A DNA stretch of 55,424 nucleotides from Clostridia bacterium (GTDB taxonomy: Bacteria; Bacillota; Clostridia; TANB77; UBA1234). The stretch spans positions 1 to 55,424 of the forward strand of contig JAEEYG010000092.1 in NCBI GenBank assembly GCA_016291695.1, given 5' to 3'. Positions 1-42,466 of the stretch are shown piece after piece (position 1 is the stretch's first letter; every line of letters starts with the position of its first letter). A program made the translations under genes and the position numbers. The notes beneath the pieces were generated by a model. That model saw only the letters and a program-made list of their open reading frames with translations, was not told where the DNA came from and searched no databases.

Positions 1-1752
1 GAAACTGGAGTTAGACTAAGATTTTTGTCAGCACTATCTAGACATTCCGATAAGCCTTGGAGCTTAGATGATGTTGATAGAACAATTAATATTGCTAAAA
101 GTCCATTTTTAGTTGGTGTTGACTTTATGGGTCAAGAAACAACTGCTTCACTTGATTTAAGGGAAGAATTAGAGATGTTTACCAGGTATGCTTGTACTCA
201 AGATCCAAATTTTGTTATTAGAGTTCATGCAGGTGAAAACCCGATTTTTAAGACTAATGTTTATGATGCGTTAAAAATTATTCAAGATGCACATGATAAA
301 TTGGAAGCTGAATTAGGGCATCCTGTTCCAATGCCACAGATTAGAATTGGACATGGACTGTACGGCTTAGACATTACAAGTGATGGTGAATGGCATGATG
401 TTCCACCTAATGGTGTTTTTGATTTAATAAAGAAAACTGGAGCAATTATTGAATTCAATATGAGCTCTAATCTTGCATTAAATAATATAAACGATATTTC
501 CAATATTCCTATAAAGAGATATGTGGATGCTGGTATACCTGTAGTTATTGGTACTGATGGTCACGGAATGTATTCTACGATTTCAGAGCAAGAGGTTTTG
601 CTTGCTAGTGCAGCGGGACTTGAGCCTGAGGATTTTGAAATTATTAGGCAAACAGAGGAAAGAGTTATTTCAAACGCGCTTGAAAGAGAACAAGAACATC
701 CTAGAATAGAAGATGTACCTGCATTGTATGAAGGCTTAAGGTATTCAACTCCAGAAGGTGGAAAAAGATTCACGGATAAGGTTGAAGAAAAGATTATAGC
801 TAGACAGGCCAGTATTGCTCATGAATTGCAACATAAAATAGCTTATACCGAAGCTATTACTGATGAAGGACAAATACTTGAAGATATTGAAGGAAAAGTT
901 CCTATACTAATTACTGGTGCATCCAAGAAATCTTGGCCGAATATTACACCCGACGATCAATTAAACATTGCAGTTGCTATGCAACTTTTAGCTGATACTT
1001 TAAATCCTGAGACTTCTTATGTTGTTACCGGTGGAACTAATTATGGTGCTGAGCGAACAATGCATGAAGCAGTACATAGGAGAAATCAAGAAGCGGAGTC
1101 AAAGCTACTTGTATTAGGAGCCTTTTCAAAGCTTATGTTACTAGGAACATTTACTATGGAAGCTGCACTTGAGGGTGAAGAGGGAATAGAAAAAGACACA
1201 ATTACTCATGCTATTGTTTTAAGATCAGAAGTTACTAAAAAGAAAGCAAAAACATGGAAAGACTTGCCAGATACGCAGTTAGACTTTGTTATAAAACGTG
1301 ATGGTCATATGATAGCAATAGGAGGAGGCTCTATTGTTAGTGATATGATACAAAGAGCTCATAATTTAGGCGTTGATATGCATTTGATGGATGGGCCTGA
1401 AGGAGCATCTACTGACAAGAGTAAAGCCTTAAGAGGAAATGATTACTCGTTTGTAACTCCTGAAGATTTGATAAGAAGACTATATAGTAGAAATCCGGCA
1501 TTATTTTTACCAGACTTTACTCTTGAAAAACTAGATGAATATCTAGCAAGGGCTAGAGAACAAGTTGGAAGCACAGAAATTCCTAATAATCCAGCAAACT
1601 TTGGCTTGGGTGCTATTTCAGAAATTGATAAATTAGTAACTGCAATCTTAAGAAACACTGGAAAAGAAAAGCTTGAGGGTGAAATTGCATCTGAATCAAA
1701 AGATGTTGATGATCCTGAAGTTAAACCCGAAGGGAGCGAGGTGACTGAATAA
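1..1752 (+). CDS. Adenosine/AMP-deaminase-like domain fused to a LOG/SLOG-like Rossmannoid domain (5' end cut by the window edge)
   Basis: Frame 1 is open from nt 1, with no stop before the TTG at 25, so the gene starts upstream of the window. The N-half has deaminase signature residues in canonical order: GVDFMGQE, VHAGE (nt 223-237), IGHG (nt 346-357), EFNMSSN and GTDGHG (nt 550-567). The N-terminal HxH metal motif would lie off-window. The C-half has Gly-rich Rossmannoid motifs VVTGGTNYGAERTM (nt 1021-1062) and IAIGGGSIVSDM (nt 1312-1347). The stop overlaps the next start (TAATG, 1750-1754). Confidence 0.6.
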   Translation, partial: ETGVRLRFLSALSRHSDKPWSLDDVDRTINIAKSPFLVGVDFMGQETTASLDLREELEMFTRYACTQDPNFVIRVHAGENPIFKTNVYDALKIIQDAHDKLEAELGHPVPMPQIRIGHGLYGLDITSDGEWHDVPPNGVFDLIKKTGAIIEFNMSSNLALNNINDISNIPIKRYVDAGIPVVIGTDGHGMYSTISEQEVLLASAAGLEPEDFEIIRQTEERVISNALEREQEHPRIEDVPALYEGLRYSTPEGGKRFTDKVEEKIIARQASIAHELQHKIAYTEAITDEGQILEDIEGKVPILITGASKKSWPNITPDDQLNIAVAMQLLADTLNPETSYVVTGGTNYGAERTMHEAVHRRNQEAESKLLVLGAFSKLMLLGTFTMEAALEGEEGIEKDTITHAIVLRSEVTKKKAKTWKDLPDTQLDFVIKRDGHMIAIGGGSIVSDMIQRAHNLGVDMHLMDGPEGASTDKSKALRGNDYSFVTPEDLIRRLYSRNPALFLPDFTLEKLDEYLARAREQVGSTEIPNNPANFGLGAISEIDKLVTAILRNTGKEKLEGEIASESKDVDDPEVKPEGSEVTE

Positions 1753-2198
1753 TGACGTTAGAATACAGACAATCTTTAACAGAGTTAGATAAAGTATTAT
1801 CTTATATGGATGAAGATAATATAAAAAAAGTTCCTAATAAGATTCTTGATTTTATTAAGAGGAATATGGATAAAAACTATTCCCCAAATATTGACAGAAA
1901 CATTCCTGTATATAAGCAACCGCTAAAAAAAGATACTAGAGTATTATTATCGTTATTATACAGACATTTCTGGTGTAGTAGCGAGAAAAAGGAAAGATTA
2001 TTAGCTGAAGACAAGGAAGAGTTGGATAAGTATTTTTCAGAGATTCAAAGACGTAGTACTTTTAATGCTTCAACTACTGATTCAAATAGTATTAACGAGG
2101 CTGTGACTGAGGAATGTAAAGAAATTGTAACGGTTGAAAAAATGAACTTCTTTAAAAGGATTCTTGATAGAATTATTAAATTCTTCAAGAGAAAATAA
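1752..2198 (+). CDS. Small partner protein, paralog A of a three-member family in this window
   Basis: Its ATG overlaps the upstream stop by 1 nt (translational coupling). It gives a gap-free alignment of about 30% identity to 40883..41170 and 3067..3561, with the pattern VL..(M/L)D....(K/R)(V/L)P..(I/V).(D/E)(F/Y)(I/L).(R/K)N ... P(N/D)I ... P(L/I).(K/R)(D/E)(T/A) ... F(W/F)C...(K/E)(E/K). It ends in a basic amphipathic tail, FFKRILDRIIKFFKRK. Confidence 0.75.
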   Translation: MTLEYRQSLTELDKVLSYMDEDNIKKVPNKILDFIKRNMDKNYSPNIDRNIPVYKQPLKKDTRVLLSLLYRHFWCSSEKKERLLAEDKEELDKYFSEIQRRSTFNASTTDSNSINEAVTEECKEIVTVEKMNFFKRILDRIIKFFKRK

Positions 2199-2210
2199 TT
2201 AAATGATTAT

Positions 2211-2241
2211 AAAAGAGCTTCCTATACTGAAGCTCTTTTTG
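2211..2241. terminator. Bidirectional rho-independent terminator between convergent genes
   Basis: The stem is agagcttc (2214-2221) / gaagctct (2229-2236), flanked by an A-run and a T-run. Confidence 0.7.
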
Positions 2242-2246
2242 ACTCT

Positions 2247-2882
2247 TTAATAATTTCTTGGACCAAATATTTTTGTTCCTATTCTTACATAAGAACTATT
2301 TTCTTGAACAGCTATTTTATAATCGTTACTCATACCCATAGAAAGTATTTCTAAATTATATTTATCTTTAAGATGGGCCATTTCATTAAAGTATTTTCTG
2401 TTTTCTTCTGGATTATCAGTTTTTGGAGCAACGCACATTAATCCTTTGACTTTAATATTAGGTAATTTACTTATACTATTTATTGCGCTATCTAATTCAT
2501 TTACATGAAAGCCATATTTTGTAGGTTCATCAGCGATATTGACTTCTAATAATGTGTTACTAATTATTCCTTTCTTATTTGCTTCTTTATCTATAGTTTC
2601 TGCTAGTTTAACCGAATCTATGGAATGAATAAGTGATACTTTACCAATAATATCTTTTACTTTATTTGTCTGCAAATGTCCTATTAGGTGCCAGTTAATA
2701 TCACTAGGTAACTTATCTATTTTGCTGAGTAACTCTTGAACTTTGTTTTCTCCAAAGTTTTTTACTCCGGCATCATATGCTTCTTTCATTTTTTCAATTG
2801 ATTGCGTTTTAGAAACAGCTATTAATTCAGCATTACTATCGTTTAAGTCATTATAAATACTATTGATATTTTCCTTTATCAT
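2247..2882 (-). CDS. yggS: YggS-family pyridoxal-phosphate homeostasis protein
   Basis: 211 aa with the hallmarks VSKTQSIE, FGENKVQE and HLIGHLQTNK, and a TIM-barrel alanine-racemase N-domain-like length. Confidence 0.85.
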   Translation of the reverse strand: MIKENINSIYNDLNDSNAELIAVSKTQSIEKMKEAYDAGVKNFGENKVQELLSKIDKLPSDINWHLIGHLQTNKVKDIIGKVSLIHSIDSVKLAETIDKEANKKGIISNTLLEVNIADEPTKYGFHVNELDSAINSISKLPNIKVKGLMCVAPKTDNPEENRKYFNEMAHLKDKYNLEILSMGMSNDYKIAVQENSSYVRIGTKIFGPRNY

Positions 2883-3066
2883 TAGTCATCACCAATTAGA
2901 TTATAGCATAAAAATCTTGTATTATTTGATATTTATTAAGTTTTTGTTACTAATTTGAACATTTTTAGAAGATTCTTGGCATCTATGATAAAATATGTAT
3001 GGTATTTGTAGGTATTAAGTACAGACGATTTTGAAATTGTTTGTTTCTTATAAAGAGGTGATTAGT

Positions 3067-3561
3067 TTGTTATCTATAGGAAAGGCAATGTATCAGGTCT
3101 GGCAAATTGTTGATAATTTGCCAGAAGATGAAAAAGCCTTTATATCTCAAGACTTAATAGATGAGATAAAAGGCACTATGGAAGTTGATGATAGTTTCAC
3201 AATTGATTTTGACATTCCGTTGGAAAAACAAAAATTAGATGATAAAGCCTGGAATATGCTTAAAAAAGTCCTTAAAAATGCTAAGAAGAATGGATATGGT
3301 AAAACTGATTCTGTAAATGTTGAAGCTCCTACCGAAGAAAAGGATATTAACCAGTTCAGGCTAGAGAATATAGAATTAAACCAAAAGCTTTCGCAATCAA
3401 AGAAGCTTATCATAGATATTAGTAAGTCTGTTGAAAAACTTCAAAATGAAAACAAAAAGCTAATGGAAGATAACGCTGAATTATTGTGTTGCATAAATAG
3501 AGTTCCAAAACTATTTAGAAAAATGTTTTTTAAAGATGCAACGACAAAGCTAATAAAGTAA
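3067..3561 (+). CDS. Small partner-family protein, paralog B, with a C-terminal coiled-coil extension
   Basis: The track ORF starts at 3031. The RBS aaagaggtg (3052-3060) favours TTG 3067, with ATG 3088 as an alternative. The segment ISQDLIDEIKGTMEVDDSFTIDFDIPLEKQKLDDKAWNML aligns gap-free with paralog A's VPNKILDFIKRNMDKNYSPNIDRNIPVYKQPLKKDTRVLL (13/40 identical by eye). The C-half is heptad-like (NQKLSQSKKLIIDISKSVEKLQNENKKLMEDNAELL) and ends in a basic tail, KLFRKMFFK. Confidence 0.65.
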   Translation: MLSIGKAMYQVWQIVDNLPEDEKAFISQDLIDEIKGTMEVDDSFTIDFDIPLEKQKLDDKAWNMLKKVLKNAKKNGYGKTDSVNVEAPTEEKDINQFRLENIELNQKLSQSKKLIIDISKSVEKLQNENKKLMEDNAELLCCINRVPKLFRKMFFKDATTKLIK

Positions 3562-3582
3562 ATGTGATATTAGGAGGTTTTT

Positions 3583-4683
3583 ATGAAAAAGTTGGGGTTT
3601 GGCTTAATGAGATTACCACGTCTTGATGGTTCAGATGAAATTGATATTGAACAAACGAAAAAAATGGTTGATTTGTTTTTAGATGCAGGTTTTACATATT
3701 TTGATACTGCTTTTGTATATAATGGAAGCGAAGAAGCAATTAAAAAAGCACTTGTTGAAAGACATCCTAGAGAATCTTATACTCTTGCTTCTAAAAATGC
3801 TGCCTGGGCTGGATGTAAATCAAGAGAAGATGCTATTAAGCAATTTGAAACTTCATTGGAAAGAACTGGAGCCGGATACTTTGATTACTATTTGCTTCAT
3901 AACTTAGGTAATGAAAGAACTAAGTATTTTGATGATTGGGATTTATGGAGATGGGCATTTGAAATGAAAGAACAGGGGAAGATAAAGCATGTTGGTTTTT
4001 CTTTCCATTCAACTCCAGAAGAGTTAGAGGAGATATTAACAAAGCATCCTGAAGCAGAATTTGTTCAACTTCAGATTAATTATGCTGATTGGGAAAGTGC
4101 AACTATTCAATCTAGAAAATGTTATGAGGTTGCTAGAAAACATGGAAAGCCTATAGTTGTTATGGAACCAGTAAAAGGTGGTATGCTTGCTACACCGCCT
4201 AAAACAGTCGAGAGTGTCCTTAAAGATGCTAATCCTAATTTATCCAATGCTTCTTGGGCTGTAAAGTATGCTGCAGACTTAGATGGAGTTATGGTTGTAT
4301 TATCTGGAATGAGTAATATTGAACAAATGCAGGATAACATTTCATATATGAAAGATTTTGAAGGCTTAAATGATAATGAAAGAAATGTTATTAAAAAAGC
4401 TCAAGAAGAATTAGATAAAATTCCCCTTATTCCATGCACATCATGCAACTATTGTGCAAAGGTATGCCCTATGAATATCGCCATATCAGCTTCTTTTAGT
4501 GCTATGAATATGTTAACTTTATATAATAATACAGAGGCTGCTAGAAGAGAAGTAGGATGGGATCTTCAAAAGGGAAAAGCTAGTGCTTCTGAATGCATCA
4601 AATGTGGAGCTTGTGAAGGTGTTTGTCCACAACATATACAAATCAGAGATGAGTTAGAAAATGTTGCTAAGCATTTGTGCTAG
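3583..4683 (+). CDS. Aldo/keto reductase with a C-terminal 4Fe-4S dicluster domain
   Basis: It has a typical AKR N-terminus (GFGLMRLP, FDTAFVYNGSEE) plus two ferredoxin Cys motifs, CTSCNYCAKVCP and CIKCGACEGVCP. The RBS is aggagg. Confidence 0.85.
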   Translation: MKKLGFGLMRLPRLDGSDEIDIEQTKKMVDLFLDAGFTYFDTAFVYNGSEEAIKKALVERHPRESYTLASKNAAWAGCKSREDAIKQFETSLERTGAGYFDYYLLHNLGNERTKYFDDWDLWRWAFEMKEQGKIKHVGFSFHSTPEELEEILTKHPEAEFVQLQINYADWESATIQSRKCYEVARKHGKPIVVMEPVKGGMLATPPKTVESVLKDANPNLSNASWAVKYAADLDGVMVVLSGMSNIEQMQDNISYMKDFEGLNDNERNVIKKAQEELDKIPLIPCTSCNYCAKVCPMNIAISASFSAMNMLTLYNNTEAARREVGWDLQKGKASASECIKCGACEGVCPQHIQIRDELENVAKHLC

Positions 4684-4836
4684 AGCTGGATTATTTTACA
4701 TAAATTATCCTTACTTGAATTTATGTTGAATAAAAATGTGCTTTTTATGTGAATTACAACAAATAATTGTTGCTCATATTGTATTAATATAGTATTATAA
4801 AAAGCAGTTGAATAATTACTCGAAAGGAGATTTTTT

Positions 4837-5643
4837 ATGAAAAATTTATTTAAGGTTTTAGCATTAGTTATGGTAATCTGCGTAGCAGTATTCGCCTTAA
4901 CTGGATGTGGAGAAGAAAAGAATGAGGGTGGTTCAACACCAGCTAATAATACAAATGTATCAAGCAACTCAATTGTTGGATATTGGAAGAATGATAGCTA
5001 TGGCGCTGACTTTATCTATACATTTAATGATGACGGAACAGGTAATTACTATGTAGCAGGTGCTGATATGCCATTTACTTATAAGACAAATGGTGATCAA
5101 TTATCTATTTTATTTGATGGTGATGATGCTTCTTTTGATACTACTTATGAAGTAAAAGGTAATGTTCTTAATGTTGCTGACTCTTTAGGTGAAGACACAT
5201 TATATGACAGAATAGATGCTAGTGAGCTTCCAAAGCCTGCTCAAATTGGAACAGCAGGGAGCAGCATGCCTCTTAAAGATAATCCAGATGAAGCTAGATC
5301 TCAGGTTGAATATTGTTTCCAAAACTGGATTGATAAAGCTTATGGTGATAAAATTACAGAGTCTAATGTTCATGTAGAAAAGATATATAGCTCAGAGGAT
5401 GAACAAAATGACGAAGCACTTAAAGCATTAAATCTTAATGAACAAGAAGTTGCTTTTGAAGTTAGATATGAACTTAAACCTGCTGAAGGCGTTGATGTAA
5501 ACGAACTTACAGCTGCAACTGGAGAGTATGACGAAGAAACTGGTTGGGTTATTGAGAAGTATAACTGCGGAGTTATTAGACCAACTGTAAATTCTGAAGA
5601 TCCTTATGAAGTTGATACTGAAAGATTAGGAACAGGCTGGTAA
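4837..5643 (+). CDS. Lipoprotein with a lipocalin-like N-domain
   Basis: It has a signal peptide with the lipobox LTGC, preceded by the RBS aaaggag. A Gly/Asp-rich beta segment is present (IVGYWKNDS...FNDDGTGNYY). Confidence 0.7.
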   Translation: MKNLFKVLALVMVICVAVFALTGCGEEKNEGGSTPANNTNVSSNSIVGYWKNDSYGADFIYTFNDDGTGNYYVAGADMPFTYKTNGDQLSILFDGDDASFDTTYEVKGNVLNVADSLGEDTLYDRIDASELPKPAQIGTAGSSMPLKDNPDEARSQVEYCFQNWIDKAYGDKITESNVHVEKIYSSEDEQNDEALKALNLNEQEVAFEVRYELKPAEGVDVNELTAATGEYDEETGWVIEKYNCGVIRPTVNSEDPYEVDTERLGTGW

Positions 5644-10017: not shown

Positions 10018-12321
10018 ATGTTTAATTTTGAGGTAAAAATGAATAAACTATCGAAAAATGTATGTTATATGAATAAATTTATATTATTAACATTATTTAT
10101 AGTCTTTTGCATGGGAATTTCCCTTAACACTTCGTATGCAGCTATTGATGAATCATCTGCATTAATTATGGAGTGGGACATTCCTGCAAATACAGAAATT
10201 AAGATTCCAATTAAAGGTACTGGAAATAATTACACAATAAATTGGGGAGACGGTAGTAGTGAAACTTCTGGGACTAGTTTATTTCCAACCCATACTTATA
10301 CTACCGCAGGAACATATACTATTAAAGTTGGTGGGAAAGTTAATAACTTTGGTTTTTATGATAACGTTGATGAAGTTTCACCTACTAGTGATTTGTACAC
10401 TTACACTCAATATCTAAAAAAGGTAACTCAAGTTGGAAATTTGGGTTACAATAGAATTGGCTTTGCTTCTTGTTATAATCTTACAACCGTTGATTTTAAA
10501 GGCGGTTTTAATTCATCTAATATGACAAGTATAGGTCTGATGTTTTGTAATTGCTTTTCTTTAACAAATGTTTATAATTTTGACGTGTTAGATACCTCTT
10601 CTGCTATCAGTATGGCCGGAATGTTTATTCACTGTGAAAACTTGGAAAGTATTGATGTCTCGCATTTTAATACTTCTAGTGTTACTGATATGCAATCTAT
10701 GTTTGGAGCTTGCTATAAATTAACATCCATAGATGTTTCTAATTTTGATACAAGAAATGTAACTACAATGTATAATATGTTTCATAATTGCAAGGCATTA
10801 GAGACGCTTGATGTTAGAAACTTTGACACATCCAAGGTTACAAGTATGTCTTACATGTTTAGATACTGCCAAGCACTTCCACACTTAGATCTTTCAAATT
10901 TTAATACTAGCAGTGTTACAACCATGGAAAGAATGTTTGAAGGTGATAGAGCTCTTACTTCATTAGATTTGTCTAGCTTTAATACAGCTAATGTTACTAA
11001 TATGTCACTTATGTTCAAGTCCTGTAGTGGTTTGACTTCTTTAAATGTTTCTAGCTTTAATACAACAAAAGTAACAACTATGAAGGATATCTTTTATGGT
11101 TGTGAATTATTAACAGATTTGGATGTTTCAAATTTTAGTGCTTCTAGTTTAACAAAGGCAGAAGATATGTTTCGTGAATGTTCTAAACTTAAAAGGATTG
11201 TATTTGGCGATGGTTTCAATACAAGTAAAGTAACATCAATGGAATACATGTTTTATAAGTGTTCAGAATTGGAAGAAATAGATTTTGGAAACTCATTTAA
11301 CACTTCAAAAGTAACTACAATGACGAGCATGTTTAGCAATTGTACTGCACTTAAAAAACTAGATTTAAGCAGATTTAGTACTATAAAAGCTACTACTATG
11401 AGTGCTATGTTTAATAAATGTGAAGCTTTAAGGTATCTTGACCTTAGCACATTTGATACTTCTTTAGTAACTGACATGCAAAATATGTTTAAGAATTGCA
11501 CAAATTTAGAGTTTATAATTATTGGTAATAGTTTTGATAAATTGAATGGAAGTACTATGTTTACAGGTTGCTCTTCTTTAAGATCTATTATCACTACATT
11601 AGTTATCGATGATCCTAATAATGCAATGGATGTAAGTACTTCTATTGGACTAAATTCAACTGCTGCTTTATATGTTCCTAATGTTGATACTGCGGAAGTA
11701 TATAGACAAGCAAATCTATATAGTAATGTTTTTGGTGCTTCACGAATTAGACCTATTCTTGAAGTAAATGGTACGCCGAAGGATATTACTATAGCTCAAG
11801 ATTCTGTTTATGGAACTGCTCAAGATAAGGGCGCTTCAATTGCAGGTTTCTCTTATAGAACAGAACGCGGAAATCCTATATATACTGAATTAGGCTATAG
11901 TATTACAGAAACTGGACTTCCTGTTGATACAACTACAACTGGTAATAAAACGGTTACTTATACTGGAAAGAAGGGTACTAATACTTTAATGACTGCTACC
12001 AGACAGGTAACAGTACAATTTGTTGATTCTGTCGCTCCATTCGGAAGTCTTACTATTCTTAATAAAATAACTGGTAATAGCAATAATGAATTTGTTAAAC
12101 GTAGATCTGTTACTTTGAAACTATTTGGACAAGATAATGTTGCAGTTACAAATTACGCATTGGCAAATGAGAACGCAAGAAGTTCTGTTTCGTGGCAATC
12201 ATTTACTGGACCAACTCTAGAACTTCCTTGGAGACTATCTGAAGGGGATGGAAGTAAGACAGTTTATTTAATGTTTAAGGATGGTGCAAATAATACTTCT
12301 GTGACTTTTGTAACACCATAA
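10018..12321 (+). CDS. BspA-type leucine-rich-repeat surface protein
   Basis: It has a signal/TM segment, then about 15 or more copies of a roughly 25-aa repeat of the form FNTSKVTSMxxMFxxCxxLxxLDLSN, and a C-terminal Ig-like region. The start could be ATG 10018 or ATG 10039. Confidence 0.85.
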   Translation: MFNFEVKMNKLSKNVCYMNKFILLTLFIVFCMGISLNTSYAAIDESSALIMEWDIPANTEIKIPIKGTGNNYTINWGDGSSETSGTSLFPTHTYTTAGTYTIKVGGKVNNFGFYDNVDEVSPTSDLYTYTQYLKKVTQVGNLGYNRIGFASCYNLTTVDFKGGFNSSNMTSIGLMFCNCFSLTNVYNFDVLDTSSAISMAGMFIHCENLESIDVSHFNTSSVTDMQSMFGACYKLTSIDVSNFDTRNVTTMYNMFHNCKALETLDVRNFDTSKVTSMSYMFRYCQALPHLDLSNFNTSSVTTMERMFEGDRALTSLDLSSFNTANVTNMSLMFKSCSGLTSLNVSSFNTTKVTTMKDIFYGCELLTDLDVSNFSASSLTKAEDMFRECSKLKRIVFGDGFNTSKVTSMEYMFYKCSELEEIDFGNSFNTSKVTTMTSMFSNCTALKKLDLSRFSTIKATTMSAMFNKCEALRYLDLSTFDTSLVTDMQNMFKNCTNLEFIIIGNSFDKLNGSTMFTGCSSLRSIITTLVIDDPNNAMDVSTSIGLNSTAALYVPNVDTAEVYRQANLYSNVFGASRIRPILEVNGTPKDITIAQDSVYGTAQDKGASIAGFSYRTERGNPIYTELGYSITETGLPVDTTTTGNKTVTYTGKKGTNTLMTATRQVTVQFVDSVAPFGSLTILNKITGNSNNEFVKRRSVTLKLFGQDNVAVTNYALANENARSSVSWQSFTGPTLELPWRLSEGDGSKTVYLMFKDGANNTSVTFVTP
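10470..11580 (+). repeat. In-frame tandem LRR-coding repeats (about 75-nt period)
   Basis: The motif (V/A)T(S/T/D)M..MF..C..L..(L/I)D(L/V)S.F recurs at a regular period in the translation. Confidence 0.8.
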
Positions 12322-37253: not shown

Positions 37254-38246
37254 ATGGATTTCATTAAAAGTATCAAAGAAAAAGCAAAGAATAGTATAAA
37301 AACTATAGTTCTACCTGAGTCTTATGATATTAGAGTTTTAGAAGCTGCAAGAAAAGTAACTGATGAGGGCTTTGCAAAAGTTGTTTTGATAGGAAATAGA
37401 GAAGAAATCAATAATATTTCAAAGGGAATAAGATTAGATGATATAGAAATAATTGACCCTAAAAATTCAGAAAAACTTGATTTCTACACAAATACACTAT
37501 ACGAACTTCGTAAAGAAAAAGGCATGACTTATGAAAAAGCAGTAGAAACACTTAAGAATAATATATATTTTGGCACAATGATGATTAAATGTGGAGATGC
37601 TGATGGACTAGTTGCTGGAAGCATTTGTTCAACTTCTGATACATTAAGACCTTCTTTGCAAATAATAAAGACTGCACCTAATGTAAAACTAGTATCATCT
37701 TTCTTTGTAATAGATGTTCCAAATTGCGAATATGGGGATAATGGTCTATTTTTATTTTCTGATTGCGGTTTAAACGTTAACCCTAATGCAGAGGAACTTT
37801 CAGAAATAGCTATTTCTACCGCTAATACTTGGAAATCTTTATTTGGAACAGAGCCAAGAATTGCAATGCTTTCATATTCAACTTTAGGAAGTGCTCCGCA
37901 GGTTGAAGGAATGAATGTTAAAGTTCAGGAAGCAACTAAACTAGTTAGAGAAAAAAGACCTGATTTATTAGTTGAAGGAGAGGTTCAACTTGATGCTGCA
38001 ATAGTTCCTTCAGTTGCTTCTAAAAAAGCTCCAGAAAGTAGTGTTGCAGGAAAAGCAAATGTTTTAATCTTCCCTGATATTAACGCTGGAAATATTGGTT
38101 ACAAATTAACTCAAAGACTTGCTAAAGCAGAAGCTTATGGACCTATTACTCAAGGTATAGCGAGACCAGTCAATGACTTATCTAGAGGATGTTCTGCAGA
38201 AGATATTGTTGGTGTAATAGCAATTACTGCTTTTCAAGCTCAATAA
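37254..38246 (+). CDS. pta: Phosphate acetyltransferase
   Basis: 330 aa; motifs are IVLPES.D.RVLEAA and SRGCSAEDIV..IAITA. The RBS is aaggag. Confidence 0.93.
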   Translation: MDFIKSIKEKAKNSIKTIVLPESYDIRVLEAARKVTDEGFAKVVLIGNREEINNISKGIRLDDIEIIDPKNSEKLDFYTNTLYELRKEKGMTYEKAVETLKNNIYFGTMMIKCGDADGLVAGSICSTSDTLRPSLQIIKTAPNVKLVSSFFVIDVPNCEYGDNGLFLFSDCGLNVNPNAEELSEIAISTANTWKSLFGTEPRIAMLSYSTLGSAPQVEGMNVKVQEATKLVREKRPDLLVEGEVQLDAAIVPSVASKKAPESSVAGKANVLIFPDINAGNIGYKLTQRLAKAEAYGPITQGIARPVNDLSRGCSAEDIVGVIAITAFQAQ

Positions 38247-38367: not shown

Positions 38368-40872
38368 ATGAATTTTGAAGAACTTAAGGGAAAAATTCAA
38401 GAAGATGTAACGGCGCTTGAACAAGCTACTAATCGTCTTGAATTATTAATACAATTTTTATCTGAAAAATATAATGATTCAGCTTTACATTATTTAAATA
38501 TAGAATTTTTTATTCAAGAAACAGCTTCTATTAGAAATGAATTGTTTGTTCTAGATGACTTTTGTCAGCTTCATTCATTGGCGAAACCATTCAATCTCCA
38601 GGATTATTCTGGTCTAGATTTACCTTCGGATCCTATTCTTCTATCAGATGGCAGCGAACAAACAAATACTAGCACACAGAATGTTGGATATACTGATGAA
38701 GAAATAAGATTACTCTCGCCACTTAGCAATTATCTTTATAGCTTATTGTCAGACATCCGCGAACACCAATATCAATTGTCTAATTCTTTTACTTCATTGA
38801 CTTATCCCATCTTATCTAGTCTAGGGCAAACTGTCCAAGATTATCCGGAAAATATGAAGTTAACCGACTTTATTAATGAGTCTGGTGTTGATGTAAATGC
38901 TCTTGATTTTCAATTGTTGAGTTCTGACGAAGTTAACAAGCTATATGGTTTTATTACTATAAGTTATAATCCTGAAGATCAAGATTTATCTTCACCAGAA
39001 ACACCAAAGAAAACAGATGTTATACAAGAGGATATTATTCGTCCGTTTGGAAGGAATATATCACAAATGACTGCAGACTATACTAAACTCTGGGATGAAA
39101 GAAGAATACTAATTGACCTAATTCAAAATCATTTACCATTGGATTCTGGTGGTAAAAATACAATATTACAATTTCATGTAGTTGAAGGAACACATAAAGA
39201 AGGCTGGTATGACATATCTGAAATTGGAGGATTTACAGATCAAGAAATAGATGGATTTCAGATTATTGATGATGGAGTTGGATATCAAAAAGAATATCTT
39301 TACTATTATGCTTCAAATAAGAGTGAAGAAAGTGCTGGTAAATTTGGTGAAGGATTAAAAGTTGCTCTTGGAGCGGCGCTTGCAAGAGGATGCAAGGTTG
39401 AAGTTCAGTCGCACTATGAGCCAGAAGCGGGCTCACAAAATGAACCTCTTGATTGGAGTGCTACAGAAGAATTAGCAGAATCTGGTGCAATAAGACCAAT
39501 TATAGTTGATTATAGAGAGGGAGCTGATATTAAAAAAGGAAGTCTCACTCGAGTAATGAACATAAATCCTGCGTTTGTTAGACAGCTTAGAAATATTAGA
39601 GAAAGTGTATTGTATTTTCACCCTTCAAAACCAGTTGCAGAAACTATGTATGGTTCAATTTTAGAATTAGAGCCAGCTGATATAATGCAAGCATCAGGGA
39701 GAGTATATGTAAAGGGGCTTTTATGGCCTGACAATAAAGATACAATCTTTTCTTATAATTTTACTCATTTAGATGTTAAAAACAGAGATAGACTATGCCT
39801 TGAAAGATGGTCTGAATTAATACCTGCAATTGAATCCGTCCTTTCCGATTTGTCCGATAAAAAAGTAATAAAACAAATATTGCAAACAATTAGCAATTAT
39901 AGTTCAACCGAAAGAGAATATGCAGAATTAAGTGCTGTTATATTTCATGATTATAACATTTATCATCCTGATATTTTGCAAGCTTGGTTAGAATCATTTA
40001 AAGAAGTATTTGGTGAAAGGGCATGCGTTATTGCCAGAAACTCATCCAACCCAGCAGCATGTGACTATGCGAGACATATGGGGCTTATACCAATTGTTTT
40101 ACCAAATTCGTGGGCACTTGCTTTAAGTAGAGTTAGGGGCAAAGATGGTGAAAAAATCTTATCTTACGAAGAAGAACATGATTCTGCAATTCGTAATGCA
40201 GTACCTGTTCCAGCAAATGAGATAACTGAAGATGAGAAAATTGTAGTTGATTGGCTACTACACGATATAGTTACCTTGTTACCACATGAAAATGGCAAAC
40301 CAAGGATATCCAATATCGAAATATATGATTATCCTAAAGATTACTTTGGTTCAAAGGCTGCTGGCTTTGCAAAATTAGGAGATACTATACATATTTGCAG
40401 AGATACATTTACAAATATTTTTGATTTACTCCATGTTGTTTTCCACGAATCTGGTCATGCTTATACGGGTGCAGGTGACCCTGATAAAGAATTTAGAGAT
40501 TTCTTATCAAGAGTTCTTGCAATTCAAGCTGCAAATAATGTTCTTGGCCCTGAAAGGTTAAGTCAAATAAGAAGTCTAAGTCGATTTGCAACAAGACCAG
40601 AACCAAGTGCAATGGAAGAATTCTTTTATGATGCATTTAAACCTTTTCAAGATCCATATACTTTTCAGTTCTTATCTAAAACTGATTCTACACCATCTGA
40701 ATTAGGACCTTTTGCAAAATTGTTAAGTGAAATGGGCTATGGAAGTAAAATGGATGAGCTAAAAAGAGATATTGATTCTTTCATTTCTCGTCTCGAAGGT
40801 AAAGGTTATAATCTCGAACAAATCACGAGAGTATTAGAAATGCGTAAAAGAGAAGTAAATCCTGAAGAATGA
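38368..40872 (+). CDS. GHKL (Bergerat-fold) ATPase fused to a C-terminal HExxH zincin metallopeptidase-like domain, with an unassigned N-terminal region of about 240 aa
   Basis: The N-box-like motif is RILIDLIQNHLPLD (from nt 39103, N254), G1 is IIDDGVGY (nt 39262-39285), G2 is GKFGEGLK (nt 39337-39360) and the zincin motif is VVFHESGHAYTG (HESGH = nt 40444-40458). Composition is native AT-rich. Confidence 0.7.
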   Translation: MNFEELKGKIQEDVTALEQATNRLELLIQFLSEKYNDSALHYLNIEFFIQETASIRNELFVLDDFCQLHSLAKPFNLQDYSGLDLPSDPILLSDGSEQTNTSTQNVGYTDEEIRLLSPLSNYLYSLLSDIREHQYQLSNSFTSLTYPILSSLGQTVQDYPENMKLTDFINESGVDVNALDFQLLSSDEVNKLYGFITISYNPEDQDLSSPETPKKTDVIQEDIIRPFGRNISQMTADYTKLWDERRILIDLIQNHLPLDSGGKNTILQFHVVEGTHKEGWYDISEIGGFTDQEIDGFQIIDDGVGYQKEYLYYYASNKSEESAGKFGEGLKVALGAALARGCKVEVQSHYEPEAGSQNEPLDWSATEELAESGAIRPIIVDYREGADIKKGSLTRVMNINPAFVRQLRNIRESVLYFHPSKPVAETMYGSILELEPADIMQASGRVYVKGLLWPDNKDTIFSYNFTHLDVKNRDRLCLERWSELIPAIESVLSDLSDKKVIKQILQTISNYSSTEREYAELSAVIFHDYNIYHPDILQAWLESFKEVFGERACVIARNSSNPAACDYARHMGLIPIVLPNSWALALSRVRGKDGEKILSYEEEHDSAIRNAVPVPANEITEDEKIVVDWLLHDIVTLLPHENGKPRISNIEIYDYPKDYFGSKAAGFAKLGDTIHICRDTFTNIFDLLHVVFHESGHAYTGAGDPDKEFRDFLSRVLAIQAANNVLGPERLSQIRSLSRFATRPEPSAMEEFFYDAFKPFQDPYTFQFLSKTDSTPSELGPFAKLLSEMGYGSKMDELKRDIDSFISRLEGKGYNLEQITRVLEMRKREVNPEE

Positions 40873-40882
40873 GGTGAAAAAT

Positions 40883-41170
40883 ATGAATGATATAAAAGTT
40901 AATTCGGAAGTATTAGGTGTTTTAAAGATTCTAGACAAAGAAACTTTACATAGACTACCTGATGACGTCTATGAATACTTAGTAAAGAATTCAAAAGAAG
41001 ACTTAATACCAGACATTCCATACGGAACACCTCTAAATGAAATGCCAATTTCAAGAGAAGCACAGGCATTTGTTACGATGTTAAATCTGGCTTTCTTTTG
41101 TAAGGATGGTAAGGAAAAAGAGACAATTATGAAAAGAATAATACAAAACGAAAAGAAGTATAATAGCTAA
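40883..41170 (+). CDS. Small partner protein, paralog C
   Basis: The start is 11 nt after the upstream stop (TGA 40870-40872), behind the RBS tgaggtga; GTG 40874 is also possible. It aligns gap-free with paralog A (see findings). Confidence 0.75.
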   Translation: MNDIKVNSEVLGVLKILDKETLHRLPDDVYEYLVKNSKEDLIPDIPYGTPLNEMPISREAQAFVTMLNLAFFCKDGKEKETIMKRIIQNEKKYNS

Positions 41171-41215: not shown

Positions 41216-41251
41216 TCGACTTTGAAAATTGCAAATAAAGGAGTTTTATAT

Positions 41252-42466
41252 ATGAAAGTATTAGTTGTTAATTGTGGAAGTTCTTCACTTAAATATCAAT
41301 TAATTGATATGGAAAATGAAAAAGTTCTTTGCAAAGGAAAATGTGACAGAATAGGCGAGACTGGAGAAGGAGCTATAGGTAAGCCATTTATTGAATATAA
41401 AGGTAAATCTGGCAAAAAGATTATAGAAGAAATCCCTCTTCCAGATCATGTTGCAGCATTTAGAGCTGTAGTTAGATATATGACTGATGCTGAAGAAGGT
41501 GTTGTAGAAAACTTATCTGAGATTTCTGCAATAGGACATAGAATAGTTAATGCTGGTCCTTTCTTCTACAAGACAACACTAGTTACAGATGAAGTAATGA
41601 CAAAATTTAAAGAGAGTTCAATTCCTTATGCACCACTTCATAATCCTGCTGCACTTCAAGGTATTAATGCTTGTTTTGAAACAATGGAAGGAATTCCTCA
41701 AGTACTTGTATTTGATACAACATTCCATCAAACAATGCCTGATAAAGCATTTATGTATGGTGTACCATATGATTGGTATGCAAAATACGGAGTAAGACGT
41801 TATGGTGCTCACGGAATGTCACATCAATTTGTTACAGAAGAAGCTGCCAAACTATTAAATAAGCCTTTAAACGAATTAAATATGATTTCATGCCATTTAG
41901 GAAATGGTTCATCTATTACTGCTATTAGAAATGGTAAATGCGTAGATACATCAATGGGATTTACTCCATTAGAAGGACTTGTTATGGGTACTCGTAGTGG
42001 AGATATTGATCCAGCTATTATGGAATTTGTCATGGATAGAGAAAACATGGATATCCATGAAATGTTAAAGACTCTTAACAAAAAATCAGGTCTTCTTGCA
42101 CTTTCTGGAAAAACTGGAGATGTTCGTGATTTAAGAATGCTTAGAGATCAAGGCGATGAAAGAGCAAAAATGGCACTTGAAGTGTTGTCTTATAGAATAA
42201 GAAAGTACATCGGTGCTTATATGGCTGTTCTAGGACATGTGGATTGTATTACATTTGAAGGTGGTATTGGAGAACACAATCCTGACGTTGTTAAAGCTGC
42301 AGTAGATGGTTTAGAAGAATTTGGAATCAAATATGATGACTCACATATTAATGATGAAATGTATGAAGGAGTTGTTAGTACCGAAGATTCTAAAATCAAA
42401 ATGTTTGTTATAGCAACTAACGAAGAGATTGTTATTGCTAGAGAAACACTAAACGCAATTAAATAA
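41252..42466 (+). CDS. ackA: Acetate kinase
   Basis: The start is ATG 41252 behind aaaggag. Motifs are MKVLVVNCGSSSLKYQL, HRIVNAG, GAHGMSH and FEGGIGE. Confidence 0.95.
   Translation: MKVLVVNCGSSSLKYQLIDMENEKVLCKGKCDRIGETGEGAIGKPFIEYKGKSGKKIIEEIPLPDHVAAFRAVVRYMTDAEEGVVENLSEISAIGHRIVNAGPFFYKTTLVTDEVMTKFKESSIPYAPLHNPAALQGINACFETMEGIPQVLVFDTTFHQTMPDKAFMYGVPYDWYAKYGVRRYGAHGMSHQFVTEEAAKLLNKPLNELNMISCHLGNGSSITAIRNGKCVDTSMGFTPLEGLVMGTRSGDIDPAIMEFVMDRENMDIHEMLKTLNKKSGLLALSGKTGDVRDLRMLRDQGDERAKMALEVLSYRIRKYIGAYMAVLGHVDCITFEGGIGEHNPDVVKAAVDGLEEFGIKYDDSHINDEMYEGVVSTEDSKIKMFVIATNEEIVIARETLNAIK

Follow-up and report, generated by a model that had tools for sequence, protein, structure and literature searches.

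A deaminase–SLOG protein of the adenosine-deaminase fold and its tail-linked small partner in a Clostridia bacterium

Contig JAEEYG010000092.1 of a Clostridia bacterium (assembly GCA_016291695.1) begins inside an open reading frame, ORF1, that joins an adenosine-deaminase-like part to a Rossmannoid part with glycine-rich loops and runs directly into a gene coding for a protein of 148 amino acids (aa). What would such an enzyme do, and why would it be made together with a small protein? These questions were addressed by computational analysis of the whole available stretch of 55,424 nucleotides (nt), referred to below as the window, and of homologous loci. The reading that we favour, with a probability of about 0.42, is that the pair is a ligand-gated adenine-nucleotide deaminase with a tail-docked small adaptor or regulator, which acts as a stress or conflict effector.

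The ORF1 stop codon (TAA) occupies positions 1750–1752, and the 5′ end of the gene is cut by the contig end. The fragment corresponds to the C-terminal ~70% of a protein of ~820–830 aa, with ~240 N-terminal codons lying beyond the contig. No upstream extension could be recovered: the exact small protein is found on four other contigs, all of ≤2.4 kb and none reaching further 5′, and the other contigs of the same species are short. An initial annotation of the window had described ORF1 as a 5′-truncated frame with ordered deaminase motifs, and all six motifs that it quoted are present in frame in the places assigned to them (Table 1), a match far beyond chance. More than 600 homologs of ORF1 were found. 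The best 120 are mostly 780–860 aa long and 44–65% identical to it, and their Pfam annotation is A_deaminase, or in a few cases the related Amidohydro_1, and nothing else. Full-length members open with a conserved domain of ~110 aa that belongs to no known family and is missing in the window. The full-length protein is thus laid out as the ~110-aa N-terminal domain, the deaminase, a helical linker, a TRPM-type SLOG domain and a ~50-aa tail, in a cytoplasmic polypeptide of ~825 aa.

The Pfam A_deaminase profile (PF00962) matched aa 1–215 of the fragment with an E value of 1.1e-11 (44.8 bits, against a cut-off of 27), and a full-length homolog, P0001, reached 81.8 bits. The match to the fragment begins at position 122 of the 330 profile positions, so approximately the first third of the domain is missing from the window. 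In a residue-level alignment of a homolog with solved adenosine deaminases (ADAs), IEFNMSSNL..GTDGHG falls on IESCLTSNL..NTDDPA, and the TDLHTHFAG segment of relatives aligns to the HxH metal-binding motif. The HxH zinc ligands, which the initial annotation proposed to look for in the missing N-terminus, are therefore present in full-length relatives; DLHTHxAG was found in all six of the full-length homologs that were read. Conservation of at least 90% in a 67-member alignment was observed for HxH (as T-D-L-H-T-H), HAGEN, RIGHG, EFNM.SNL and D-G-.-G, which argues for selection on the zinc ligands as well as on the catalytic Glu and His. The fragment itself contains HAGE, with a metal-binding His and the catalytic Glu, the His of GHG, and the metal-binding first Asp of the TDD motif. 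The deaminase domain retains all metal ligands and acid/base residues that can be checked, and its catalytic set is predicted to be intact.

In classical ADA (the mouse enzyme), the nucleoside is held by the Asp that follows HxH and by the second Asp of TDD. The former is Ala throughout the family (HTHFAG and not HxHxDG). The replacement of the latter by Gly, noticed initially in ORF1, was confirmed by the ADA alignment and is family-wide, with D, G and G each conserved at ≥90% in the 67 sequences. Because the two nucleoside-holding Asp residues are Ala and Gly in this family, the substrate may be an adenine nucleotide rather than adenosine. An ordinary housekeeping deaminase with conserved synteny was the alternative considered in the initial annotation, and it is not what was found. 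The TDG motif of ORF1 and the HTHFAG motif of its relatives are not those of a classical Add, the fragment scored only ~31–32 bits against NCBIfam equivalog cut-offs of 216–426, identity to annotated housekeeping add genes was only 21–23%, and synteny was not conserved. By these comparisons ORF1 is not a housekeeping Add.

The C-terminal half of ORF1 had been described as LOG/SLOG-like; the SLOG fold holds, while the affiliation is with the TRPM/LSDAT branch and not with the LOG branch. An AlphaFold2 (AF2) model (m023e2b7a5d4d) of window aa 231–583, built with the 67-sequence alignment, has a mean predicted local distance difference test score (pLDDT) of 88.6 and a predicted template modelling score of 0.79. 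In a Foldseek comparison with PDB, the 28 best matches to this model were N-terminal regions (MHR1/2) of TRPM2, TRPM8, TRPM4 and TRPM5, with E values from 7e-8 to 7e-6 and a probability of 1.0; TRPM2 with bound ADP-ribose, TRPM4 with bound ATP and a local map of MHR1/2 are among them. The next match was the molybdenum-cofactor carrier protein 6y01 (target TM-score 0.72). The possibility that this half lacks a SLOG-like fold, raised with the initial annotation, is thus contradicted by structure prediction. At the level of sequence, Pfam LSDAT_euk was seen below threshold and with P0001 only (E 0.022; 14.6 bits, where the cut-off is 25.7), the family profile matched TRPM2 chains at sub-threshold E values of 0.09–0.4, and LSDAT_prok was not among the Pfam matches of the fragment or of the full-length homolog. 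There was no match to the LOG family, Lysine_decarbox, either (at E values up to 1 for the fragment and 0.1 for the full-length homolog); the LOG motif PGGxGTxxE is absent, and the corresponding loop reads TGGTN.G.E. Two loops of the domain, TGGTN.G.E..H and GGG...Q, are invariant in the 67-sequence alignment, which suggests a conserved pocket. The known members of the TRPM/LSDAT branch bind ligands rather than catalyse. In ORF1, a 9-residue duplication (Table 1) sits in the core SLOG strand that holds the invariant Gly-Thr. The duplication is fixed in the species, as three independent contigs carry it, while none of 88 homologs has it; model confidence falls to 73–78 where it occurs.

The initial annotation had also reported that the ORF1 stop overlaps the start of the 148-aa gene. 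The junction reads GAA TAA TG, with the ATG of the small gene beginning at position 1752, the last base of the stop codon, so that the one-base overlap is directly visible. With a Shine–Dalgarno-like element placed inside the 3′ end of ORF1 (Table 1), the arrangement of the two genes is that of translational coupling. The AF2 model of the 148-aa protein (pLDDT 84.1) consists of a compact helical N-terminal domain (N-domain) at aa 1–108 (pLDDT >90), a disordered linker, and a helix at aa 132–146. A 42% identical ortholog is encoded in the same position in another locus, L001.

The small protein belongs to a large family. A profile search of 1.84 billion representative proteins recovered at least 3,689 clusters at 50% identity (E ≤ 0.001), 1,757 of them at ≤1e-10; the window copy scores 8.6e-49 with the family hidden Markov model (HMM). 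Nearly all members are ~150 aa long. They share a helical N-domain of ~80–108 aa with E11, P28 and Y-W-C and usually also an EKYNPDNIFK-like motif in a linker, a C-terminal helix that is cationic and amphipathic, and a position just after a larger gene. In the last 20 residues of 130 representatives, the mean hydrophobic moment was 0.75, compared to 0.43 ± 0.15 for shuffled sequences, and the mean net charge was +5; the moment of the window copy is 1.03. No Pfam, NCBIfam or PADLOC family matched the small partner, its sole PHROG match was weak (E 0.0037), and searches of PDB and BFVD by fold, and of PDB by sequence, returned nothing. Of 114 family copies in 136 fetched loci, 96 have a co-directional gene within 60 nt upstream, often overlapping, and 20 of 101 loci carry two or more copies.

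Proteins encoded upstream of small partners fall into more than 30 unrelated groups. These include the deaminase–SLOG proteins, an 818-aa Amidoligase_2 protein, a RelA/SpoT small-alarmone-synthetase-like protein, a dGTPase-like HD protein, the 834-aa HExxH protein of the window, a 296-aa family, and many proteins without a known domain. The enzymes among them other than the deaminase, such as the alarmone synthetase, the dGTPase-like protein and the amidoligase, resemble known nucleotide-depleting or translation-blocking effectors. In one locus (L056), a deaminase pair is followed by a 211-aa gene and then by an alarmone-synthetase pair.

The connection between enzyme and partner appears to lie in the tail. 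A tail HMM, made from the last 75 residues of partner-linked deaminase–SLOG proteins, also matched two further proteins, one of 340 aa (4.5e-20) and one of 654 aa (7.9e-10); both precede small partners and are otherwise without similarity to the deaminase. Deaminase–SLOG orthologs that have no partner (Saccharibacteria, L004 type) matched only the first 20–35 positions of the tail HMM, i.e., they lack the tail. The partners of the 340-aa and 654-aa proteins scored 185–193 bits with a model of deaminase-type partners, compared to at most 151 bits for partners whose upstream protein does not have a deaminase-type tail. The type of the ~50-aa tail thus predicts the partner subtype irrespective of the enzyme body. 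The nearest-neighbour partner had the same upstream type in 21 of 25 cases, with grouping by type and not by genome, and mean partner scores were 127 bits between different loci of the same type and 58 bits between types that differ within one locus. Tail and small gene are thus inherited, travel and diversify as a unit; the simplest reading, we infer, is that the partner N-domain recognises the tail.

Taken together, a mechanism can be proposed in which the enzyme would convert an adenine nucleotide (AMP, ATP or dATP), and not free adenosine, to its inosine form. The SLOG domain would bind an adenine-derived ligand, ADP-ribose-like or ATP, and gate catalysis allosterically, by analogy with CARF in Cad1 and SLOG in ThsA. 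The tail would dock the N-domain of the translationally coupled small protein, whose cationic amphipathic helix would tether or regulate the enzyme, with the membrane or a shared machine as the site. The module as a whole would be a nucleotide-depleting stress or conflict effector, and one of three modules of tail and partner in the window.

Table 1. Coordinates of features in the 55,424-nt window.
Feature	Position	Strand	Basis or remark
Deaminase–SLOG gene (ORF1), 3′ part (583 codons + stop)	1..1752	+	frame open from base 1
Adenosine-deaminase-fold domain, profile positions 122–305 of 330	1..690	+	Pfam PF00962, residue-level ADA alignment
VHAGE	223–237	+	ORF1 frame
IGHG	346–357	+	ORF1 frame
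EFNMSSN	451–471	+	ORF1 frame
GTDGHG	550–567	+	ORF1 frame
Helical linker, deaminase to SLOG	691..903	+	AF2 model helices at model residues 9–14, 29–53, 59–66, pLDDT 78–91
TRPM-type (LSDAT-like) SLOG Rossmannoid domain, predicted	904..1587	+	AF2 model and Foldseek
Gly-rich loop ILITGASKK	904–930	+	SLOG domain
Gly-rich loop VVTGGTNYGAERTM	1021–1062	+	SLOG domain, ORF1 frame
Imperfect in-frame 27-nt tandem duplication, KLLVLGAFS/KLMLLGTFT	1102..1155 (1102–1128, 1129–1155)	+	sequence read
Gly-rich loop IAIGGGSIVSDM	1312–1347	+	SLOG domain, ORF1 frame
C-terminal tail, NPANFGLGAISEIDKLV... then acidic end; proposed docking element	1588..1749	+	tail HMM, partner-subtype match
Shine–Dalgarno-like GGGAGCGAGG within ORF1 3′ end, serving the overlapping small gene	1731..1740	+	sequence read directly
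Small partner, 148 aa	1752..2198	+	start overlaps ORF1 stop
Divergent third small-partner member, 176 aa	3031..3561	+	family HMM E 1.5e-05; BLASTP E 4e-04 vs 148-aa protein
834-aa protein with HExxH motif, large member of second module	38368..40872	+	ORF; phrog_6077 at 7.4e-10
Small-partner paralog, listed at 98 aa but probably of 95 aa	40874..41170	+	family HMM E 2.1e-25

A one-genome-per-species scan of 185,579 species confirmed at least 37 deaminase–SLOG loci, in Clostridia, Bacilli, Saccharibacteria, gut Alphaproteobacteria, Gastranaerophilales and Ignavibacteriales; relatives of 23–33% identity with the same two-domain layout were found in Myxococcota, Rickettsiales and Phycisphaeraceae. 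The distribution is patchy, and cross-phylum identity (40–56%) is about equal to identity within Clostridia, which indicates horizontal transfer. The neighbourhoods vary from locus to locus without conserved synteny. The gene is accessory and horizontally moved.

Fusions and neighbours place the enzyme in nucleotide processing. A PGDYG-like domain is fused C-terminally in three loci (L024, L025, L026) and in four database proteins, apparently fused N-terminally in L009 (by our own ORF call), and encoded adjacently in seven further distinct loci. A NUDIX domain is fused in L029 and L030 (MutT/nudix, 1.4e-09), and Nudix-box genes are adjacent in three loci. In L035 the core is fused to a PF15891-like deoxyribosyltransferase domain, which L001 encodes nearby (1e-16).

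Several observations weigh against the proposed gated effector. The substrate, the ligand and the tail–partner contact are all putative. A general C-terminal motif, sought by Gibbs sampling over all proteins that precede partners, scored modestly above controls (533 vs 482–494); a universal motif was accordingly dropped as a candidate, the excess being modest and the firm signal being limited to the deaminase-type tail. Many orthologs do without a small partner, which is therefore no intrinsic part of the enzyme. The duplication in the core SLOG strand may impair or alter ligand binding in the ORF1 allele. Both modules of the window lie among core genes (yggS, pyrG, mreB, murC and uvrC in one case, pta and ackA in the other), and PADLOC gave no system match apart from a weak one to CARF_ADA (E 5e-05, aa 165–204 of the deaminase part). 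The 150 proteins flanking 39 loci showed no defence or mobile-element enrichment, the commonest Pfam family occurring three times, and no recurrent signal-generating neighbour. That no conserved maker of a signalling nucleotide turned up makes a dedicated second messenger improbable. Nor did the deaminase–SLOG family occur in 50,697 phage records or in 72,556 plasmid records.

Defence-related neighbours were sporadic in the 39 loci: one Cas9/Cas1 locus (type II Cas9), two SoFic and two PDC-S04. Apparent nSTAND1 matches among neighbours proved to be UvrA, and the large myxobacterial neighbours, considered as defence genes, are Ig-like repeat proteins. A phage origin was likewise considered and rejected, as PHROG matches were only weak, IMG/VR contained one partner locus, and phage and plasmid records gave none. 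The initial annotation placed the module in immunity or conflict by analogy. An immune role is plausible, yet gene neighbourhood does not support it, and the biological role is the weakest link of the favoured reading. We nevertheless favour a conflict or stress function, because the enzymes of the partner family resemble nucleotide-depleting or translation-blocking effectors and the modules cluster.

The absence of a defence-island association and the core-gene setting leave purine salvage as a serious rival. In this explanation, which we consider somewhat unlikely, streamlined host-associated bacteria would use the protein, an allosteric AMP or adenosine deaminase, to balance their adenine and guanine nucleotide pools or to supply purine salvage, and it would be the bacterial equivalent of eukaryotic AMP deaminase. 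SLOG would read ATP, GTP or ADP-ribose levels, the NUDIX and deoxyribosyltransferase-like fusions would add catabolic steps, and the small partner would be a lineage-specific scaffold. Core chromosomal surroundings are seen not only in the window but also in Saccharibacteria, where the gene lies beside ribosomal protein genes, secE and nusG, and in an alphaproteobacterium, where it lies beside pyrG, tpiA and secG. Carriers are small-genome, host-associated bacteria (Saccharibacteria, gut Bacilli and Alphaproteobacteria, Gastranaerophilales), the gene mostly stands alone and lacks a signal generator in its vicinity, the NUDIX and PF15891-like fusion domains serve nucleotide catabolism, and the nearest solved sequences are those of ordinary ADAs and not of Cad1. 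Yet the family, with at least 37 loci confirmed in the scan, is rare, patchy and not lineage-wide, its synteny is not conserved, and its scores are far below the housekeeping equivalog cut-offs. No riboswitch (purine, ZTP or ppGpp) or other Rfam element was found upstream in 10 loci. The extra N-terminal domain, the docking tail, and the Clostridial clustering with other tail-plus-partner modules, one with an alarmone synthetase, would be odd for a salvage enzyme. A more far-reaching version of the effector hypothesis, which we regard as unlikely, gives the small protein the leading part. It would define a new, very large system as a cognate adaptor that reads a transferable C-terminal "address tail" on dozens of unrelated nucleotide-targeting enzymes of low-GC gut and rumen Firmicutes, including the deaminase–SLOG protein, the alarmone synthetase, the dNTPase-like protein, the amidoligase, the zincin-motif protein and many without a known domain. 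It would equip all of these with the same cationic amphipathic helix, by which they could be tethered to the membrane or brought to a machine that they share, and the window deaminase would be an ADP-ribose- or ATP-gated effector of the abortive-infection type under its control.

Other explanations assign a different job to one of the components. A toxin–antitoxin pair would have the deaminase–SLOG protein as the toxin and the small protein as a labile, promiscuous antitoxin that binds many toxins, as Panacea (PanA) does, loss of the antitoxin freeing the enzyme. The bicistronic overlapping arrangement, the pairing of one small family with unrelated large proteins by the dozen (a RelA/SpoT-type synthetase among them), the cognate co-diversification, the several paralogous pairs per genome and the precedent of hyperpromiscuous antitoxins (PMC8832971, PMC10440598) all fit. 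The enzyme is, however, tolerated alone, given that orthologs in four other phyla have no small partner; the partner follows the transferable tail and not the catalytic body; its conserved cationic amphipathic helix is not an antitoxin feature; and it has no match to DUF4065 or any other Pfam family. The large proteins, at 300–830 aa and multidomain, are not small toxins, and the small-partner family is absent from plasmids and phages, where toxin–antitoxin modules abound. We rate this explanation as quite improbable. We consider it very unlikely that the protein is a fusion of two enzymes, in which SLOG would be a LOG/PpnN-like nucleotide N-glycosidase and consecutive steps such as AMP to IMP to hypoxanthine and ribose-5-phosphate would proceed without ligand gating. 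The SLOG superfamily does include true enzymes (LOG, PpnN), the invariant TGGTN.G.E..H loop loosely resembles PGGxGTxxE of LOG, and fusions to other nucleotide-cleaving domains exist; but Lysine_decarbox was not matched, the LOG motif is absent, and structure and sequence both place the domain closest to TRPM domains, which bind ligands without catalysing, and to a cofactor carrier protein. That the inosine nucleotide made by the deaminase is a second messenger for a separate effector seems most improbable of all. The model for such a role is KomA of Kongming, a stand-alone adenosine-deaminase-domain protein whose products give rise to dITP, the activator of a SIR2 effector complex (10.1101/2024.12.20.629578), and a nucleotide-binding domain in the same polypeptide could provide feedback control. 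Among the 39 loci, however, no KomB-, KomC- or SIR2-like or other conserved effector neighbour was found, nor was there a Kongming-type PADLOC match.

The small-partner family as a whole was essentially absent from viral, phage and plasmid collections, with one match in IMG/VR. PANGU, a nucleoid-protein sensor with diverse effectors, was considered as an analogue of the small partner; a relationship was rejected, since PANGU uses YejK-like proteins. In three loci (L124, positions 1633–5189; also L118 and L121), the gene of the 818-aa Amidoligase_2 protein precedes that of a small partner, and a Nudix-box gene comes next; NUDIX thus accompanies more than one kind of tail-plus-partner module. 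A 718-aa protein (P0139; L050, 535–2691) contains two tandem small-partner N-domains, with an N-terminal part that is vWA-like by eye, and the small-partner domain can thus be built into larger proteins. In the L004 locus, the C-terminus of P0059 (8001–10514) and that of a 404-aa protein (10686–11900) have basic amphipathic ends, GKWIENIRKKIQEIFINK and VKAFLENLRNKLQNLFKGK. By eye these helices resemble the partner C-terminal helix, as if it were present in cis; a short HMM was without power to confirm the resemblance.

The second module of the window, at 38.4–41.2 kb, was suggested in the initial annotation to be of the same type as the deaminase pair. The comparison bears this out: the small genes of both belong to one family, and large-protein tails track the partner subtype. 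The proposed paralogy between the 148-aa protein and the 40.9-kb gene is real though remote (20% identity over 71 aa, E 1e-09; 2.1e-25 with the family profile). The likely start of the 40.9-kb gene is the ATG at 40883, after GAGGTG, and not the GTG at 40874, which is probably part of this GAGGTG ribosome-binding site; this copy has neither the linker nor the amphipathic C-terminal helix. The GHKL label given to its 834-aa neighbour was not confirmed, as Pfam, NCBIfam and PDB sequence searches were empty and only the HExxH motif is visible. The tail of the 834-aa protein, TPSELGPFAKLL..., resembles the deaminase tail, by eye only. The gene and its small partner are inserted exactly between two genes that we take, from their sequences, to be pta (37254..38246) and ackA (41222..42466). 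These two genes are usually adjacent.

The third family member in the window lies ~1 kb downstream of the deaminase module, past the oppositely oriented yggS, and has no co-directional upstream gene, yggS being directly upstream on the opposite strand. The core genes of the window also surround a gene (10018–12321) whose 767-aa product is of a surface-protein type, with leucine-rich repeats of the BspA kind and six DUF285 repeats. In Clostridial loci, a conserved protein of ~165 aa that starts with MPGYIIHIAIGK and contains HLITDYLFY is encoded between the 296-aa-plus-partner pair and the deaminase pair (L001, 5817–6326; L010, 3097–3594; L013, 2541–2936). It has no Pfam, NCBIfam or PHROG match and is phospholipase-C-like by eye only. 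The deaminase island of L001 (2521–7698) starts after a tRNA gene and includes genes for TnpV and a relaxase fragment, which suggests a remnant of an integrated element.

Should the proposed gating be true, a TRPM-like SLOG domain would be a third type of sensor among ligand-switched nucleotide deaminases. Because the bacterial protein is soluble, the ligand of a TRPM-type SLOG domain could be found by simple binding assays, and the NUDIX fusions, the same pairing as in TRPM2, bear on the origin of the two ADP-ribose sites of TRPM2. The partner family, with its thousands of clusters, has no name, Pfam model or structural relative, and the co-variation of tail and partner provides a testable hypothesis about its function. 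Should the role be metabolic, a regulated bacterial analogue of AMP deaminase would be at hand in poorly studied host-dependent lineages such as Saccharibacteria.

Among known systems, the closest in expected logic is Cad1, the CARF–adenosine deaminase effector of type III CRISPR (PMC11645235). Both proteins have a Rossmannoid nucleotide sensor fused to a deaminase fold, and in both a ligand would switch on adenine-nucleotide deamination. The sensor of Cad1 is an N-terminal CARF domain, however, whereas here it is a C-terminal SLOG domain of the TRPM/LSDAT type, and an extra N-terminal domain and a docking tail are present. There is also no CRISPR context, no CARF was found, and a cas gene lies beside only 1 of the 39 loci, where it is type II Cas9; the family profile matches Cad1 structures at E 0.42 only, compared to 4e-13 for ordinary ADAs. 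The MHR1/2 regions of TRPM2, TRPM4 and TRPM8 are the best structural match of the C-terminal half, with sub-threshold sequence matches, and the combination of SLOG and NUDIX in distant relatives echoes SLOG and NUDT9-H of TRPM2. The bacterial domain differs in being soluble and joined to an enzyme and not to a channel, and Pfam LSDAT_euk stays below its cut-off. In ThsA (SIR2–SLOG) of Thoeris, SLOG binds an ADP-ribose-derived ligand and activates a nucleotide-consuming enzyme (PMC7272460, PMC11204291). A SLOG sensor fused to a nucleotide-consuming enzyme is common to both, but the enzyme here is a deaminase and not SIR2, the SLOG domain is closer to TRPM than to the ThsA type, and TIR (ThsB-like) is not among the 25 commonest of the 122 Pfam families of the 150 neighbours, single occurrences being possible.

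RdrB of RADAR (PMC9994260) and KomA of Kongming (10.1101/2024.12.20.629578) are defence enzymes of the deaminase fold that act on adenine nucleotides and not on adenosine. They share the adenosine-deaminase fold with ORF1, while the domain layout of each is different. PADLOC gave no RdrB match, RdrA is not among the 25 commonest PADLOC families of the 150 neighbours, and neither KomB nor KomC is a neighbour. The small partner is best compared with the hyperpromiscuous antitoxins of Panacea (PanA, DUF4065; PMC8832971, PMC10440598): one small family stands beside dozens of unrelated larger proteins, including RelA/SpoT-type ones, and cognate pairs co-diversify. It has no sequence, Pfam (DUF4065) or fold relationship to them, however, and it is encoded downstream, follows a transferable tail, carries a cationic amphipathic helix and is not found on phages or plasmids. 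Cad1, the SLOG/NUDIX arrangement of TRPM2 and Panacea each differ from the proteins of the window in a defining feature, and so, probably, does ThsA. No description of the deaminase–SLOG fusion or of the small-partner family was found in the literature searched, which did not include the 2015 classification of SLOG domains, where the architecture may be listed. A 2022 survey of NAD and ADP-ribose systems mentions neither LSDAT nor adenosine deaminase. By its predicted domains the enzyme belongs with the sensor-fused nucleotide deaminases, and the arrangement of tail and partner may be new in kind.

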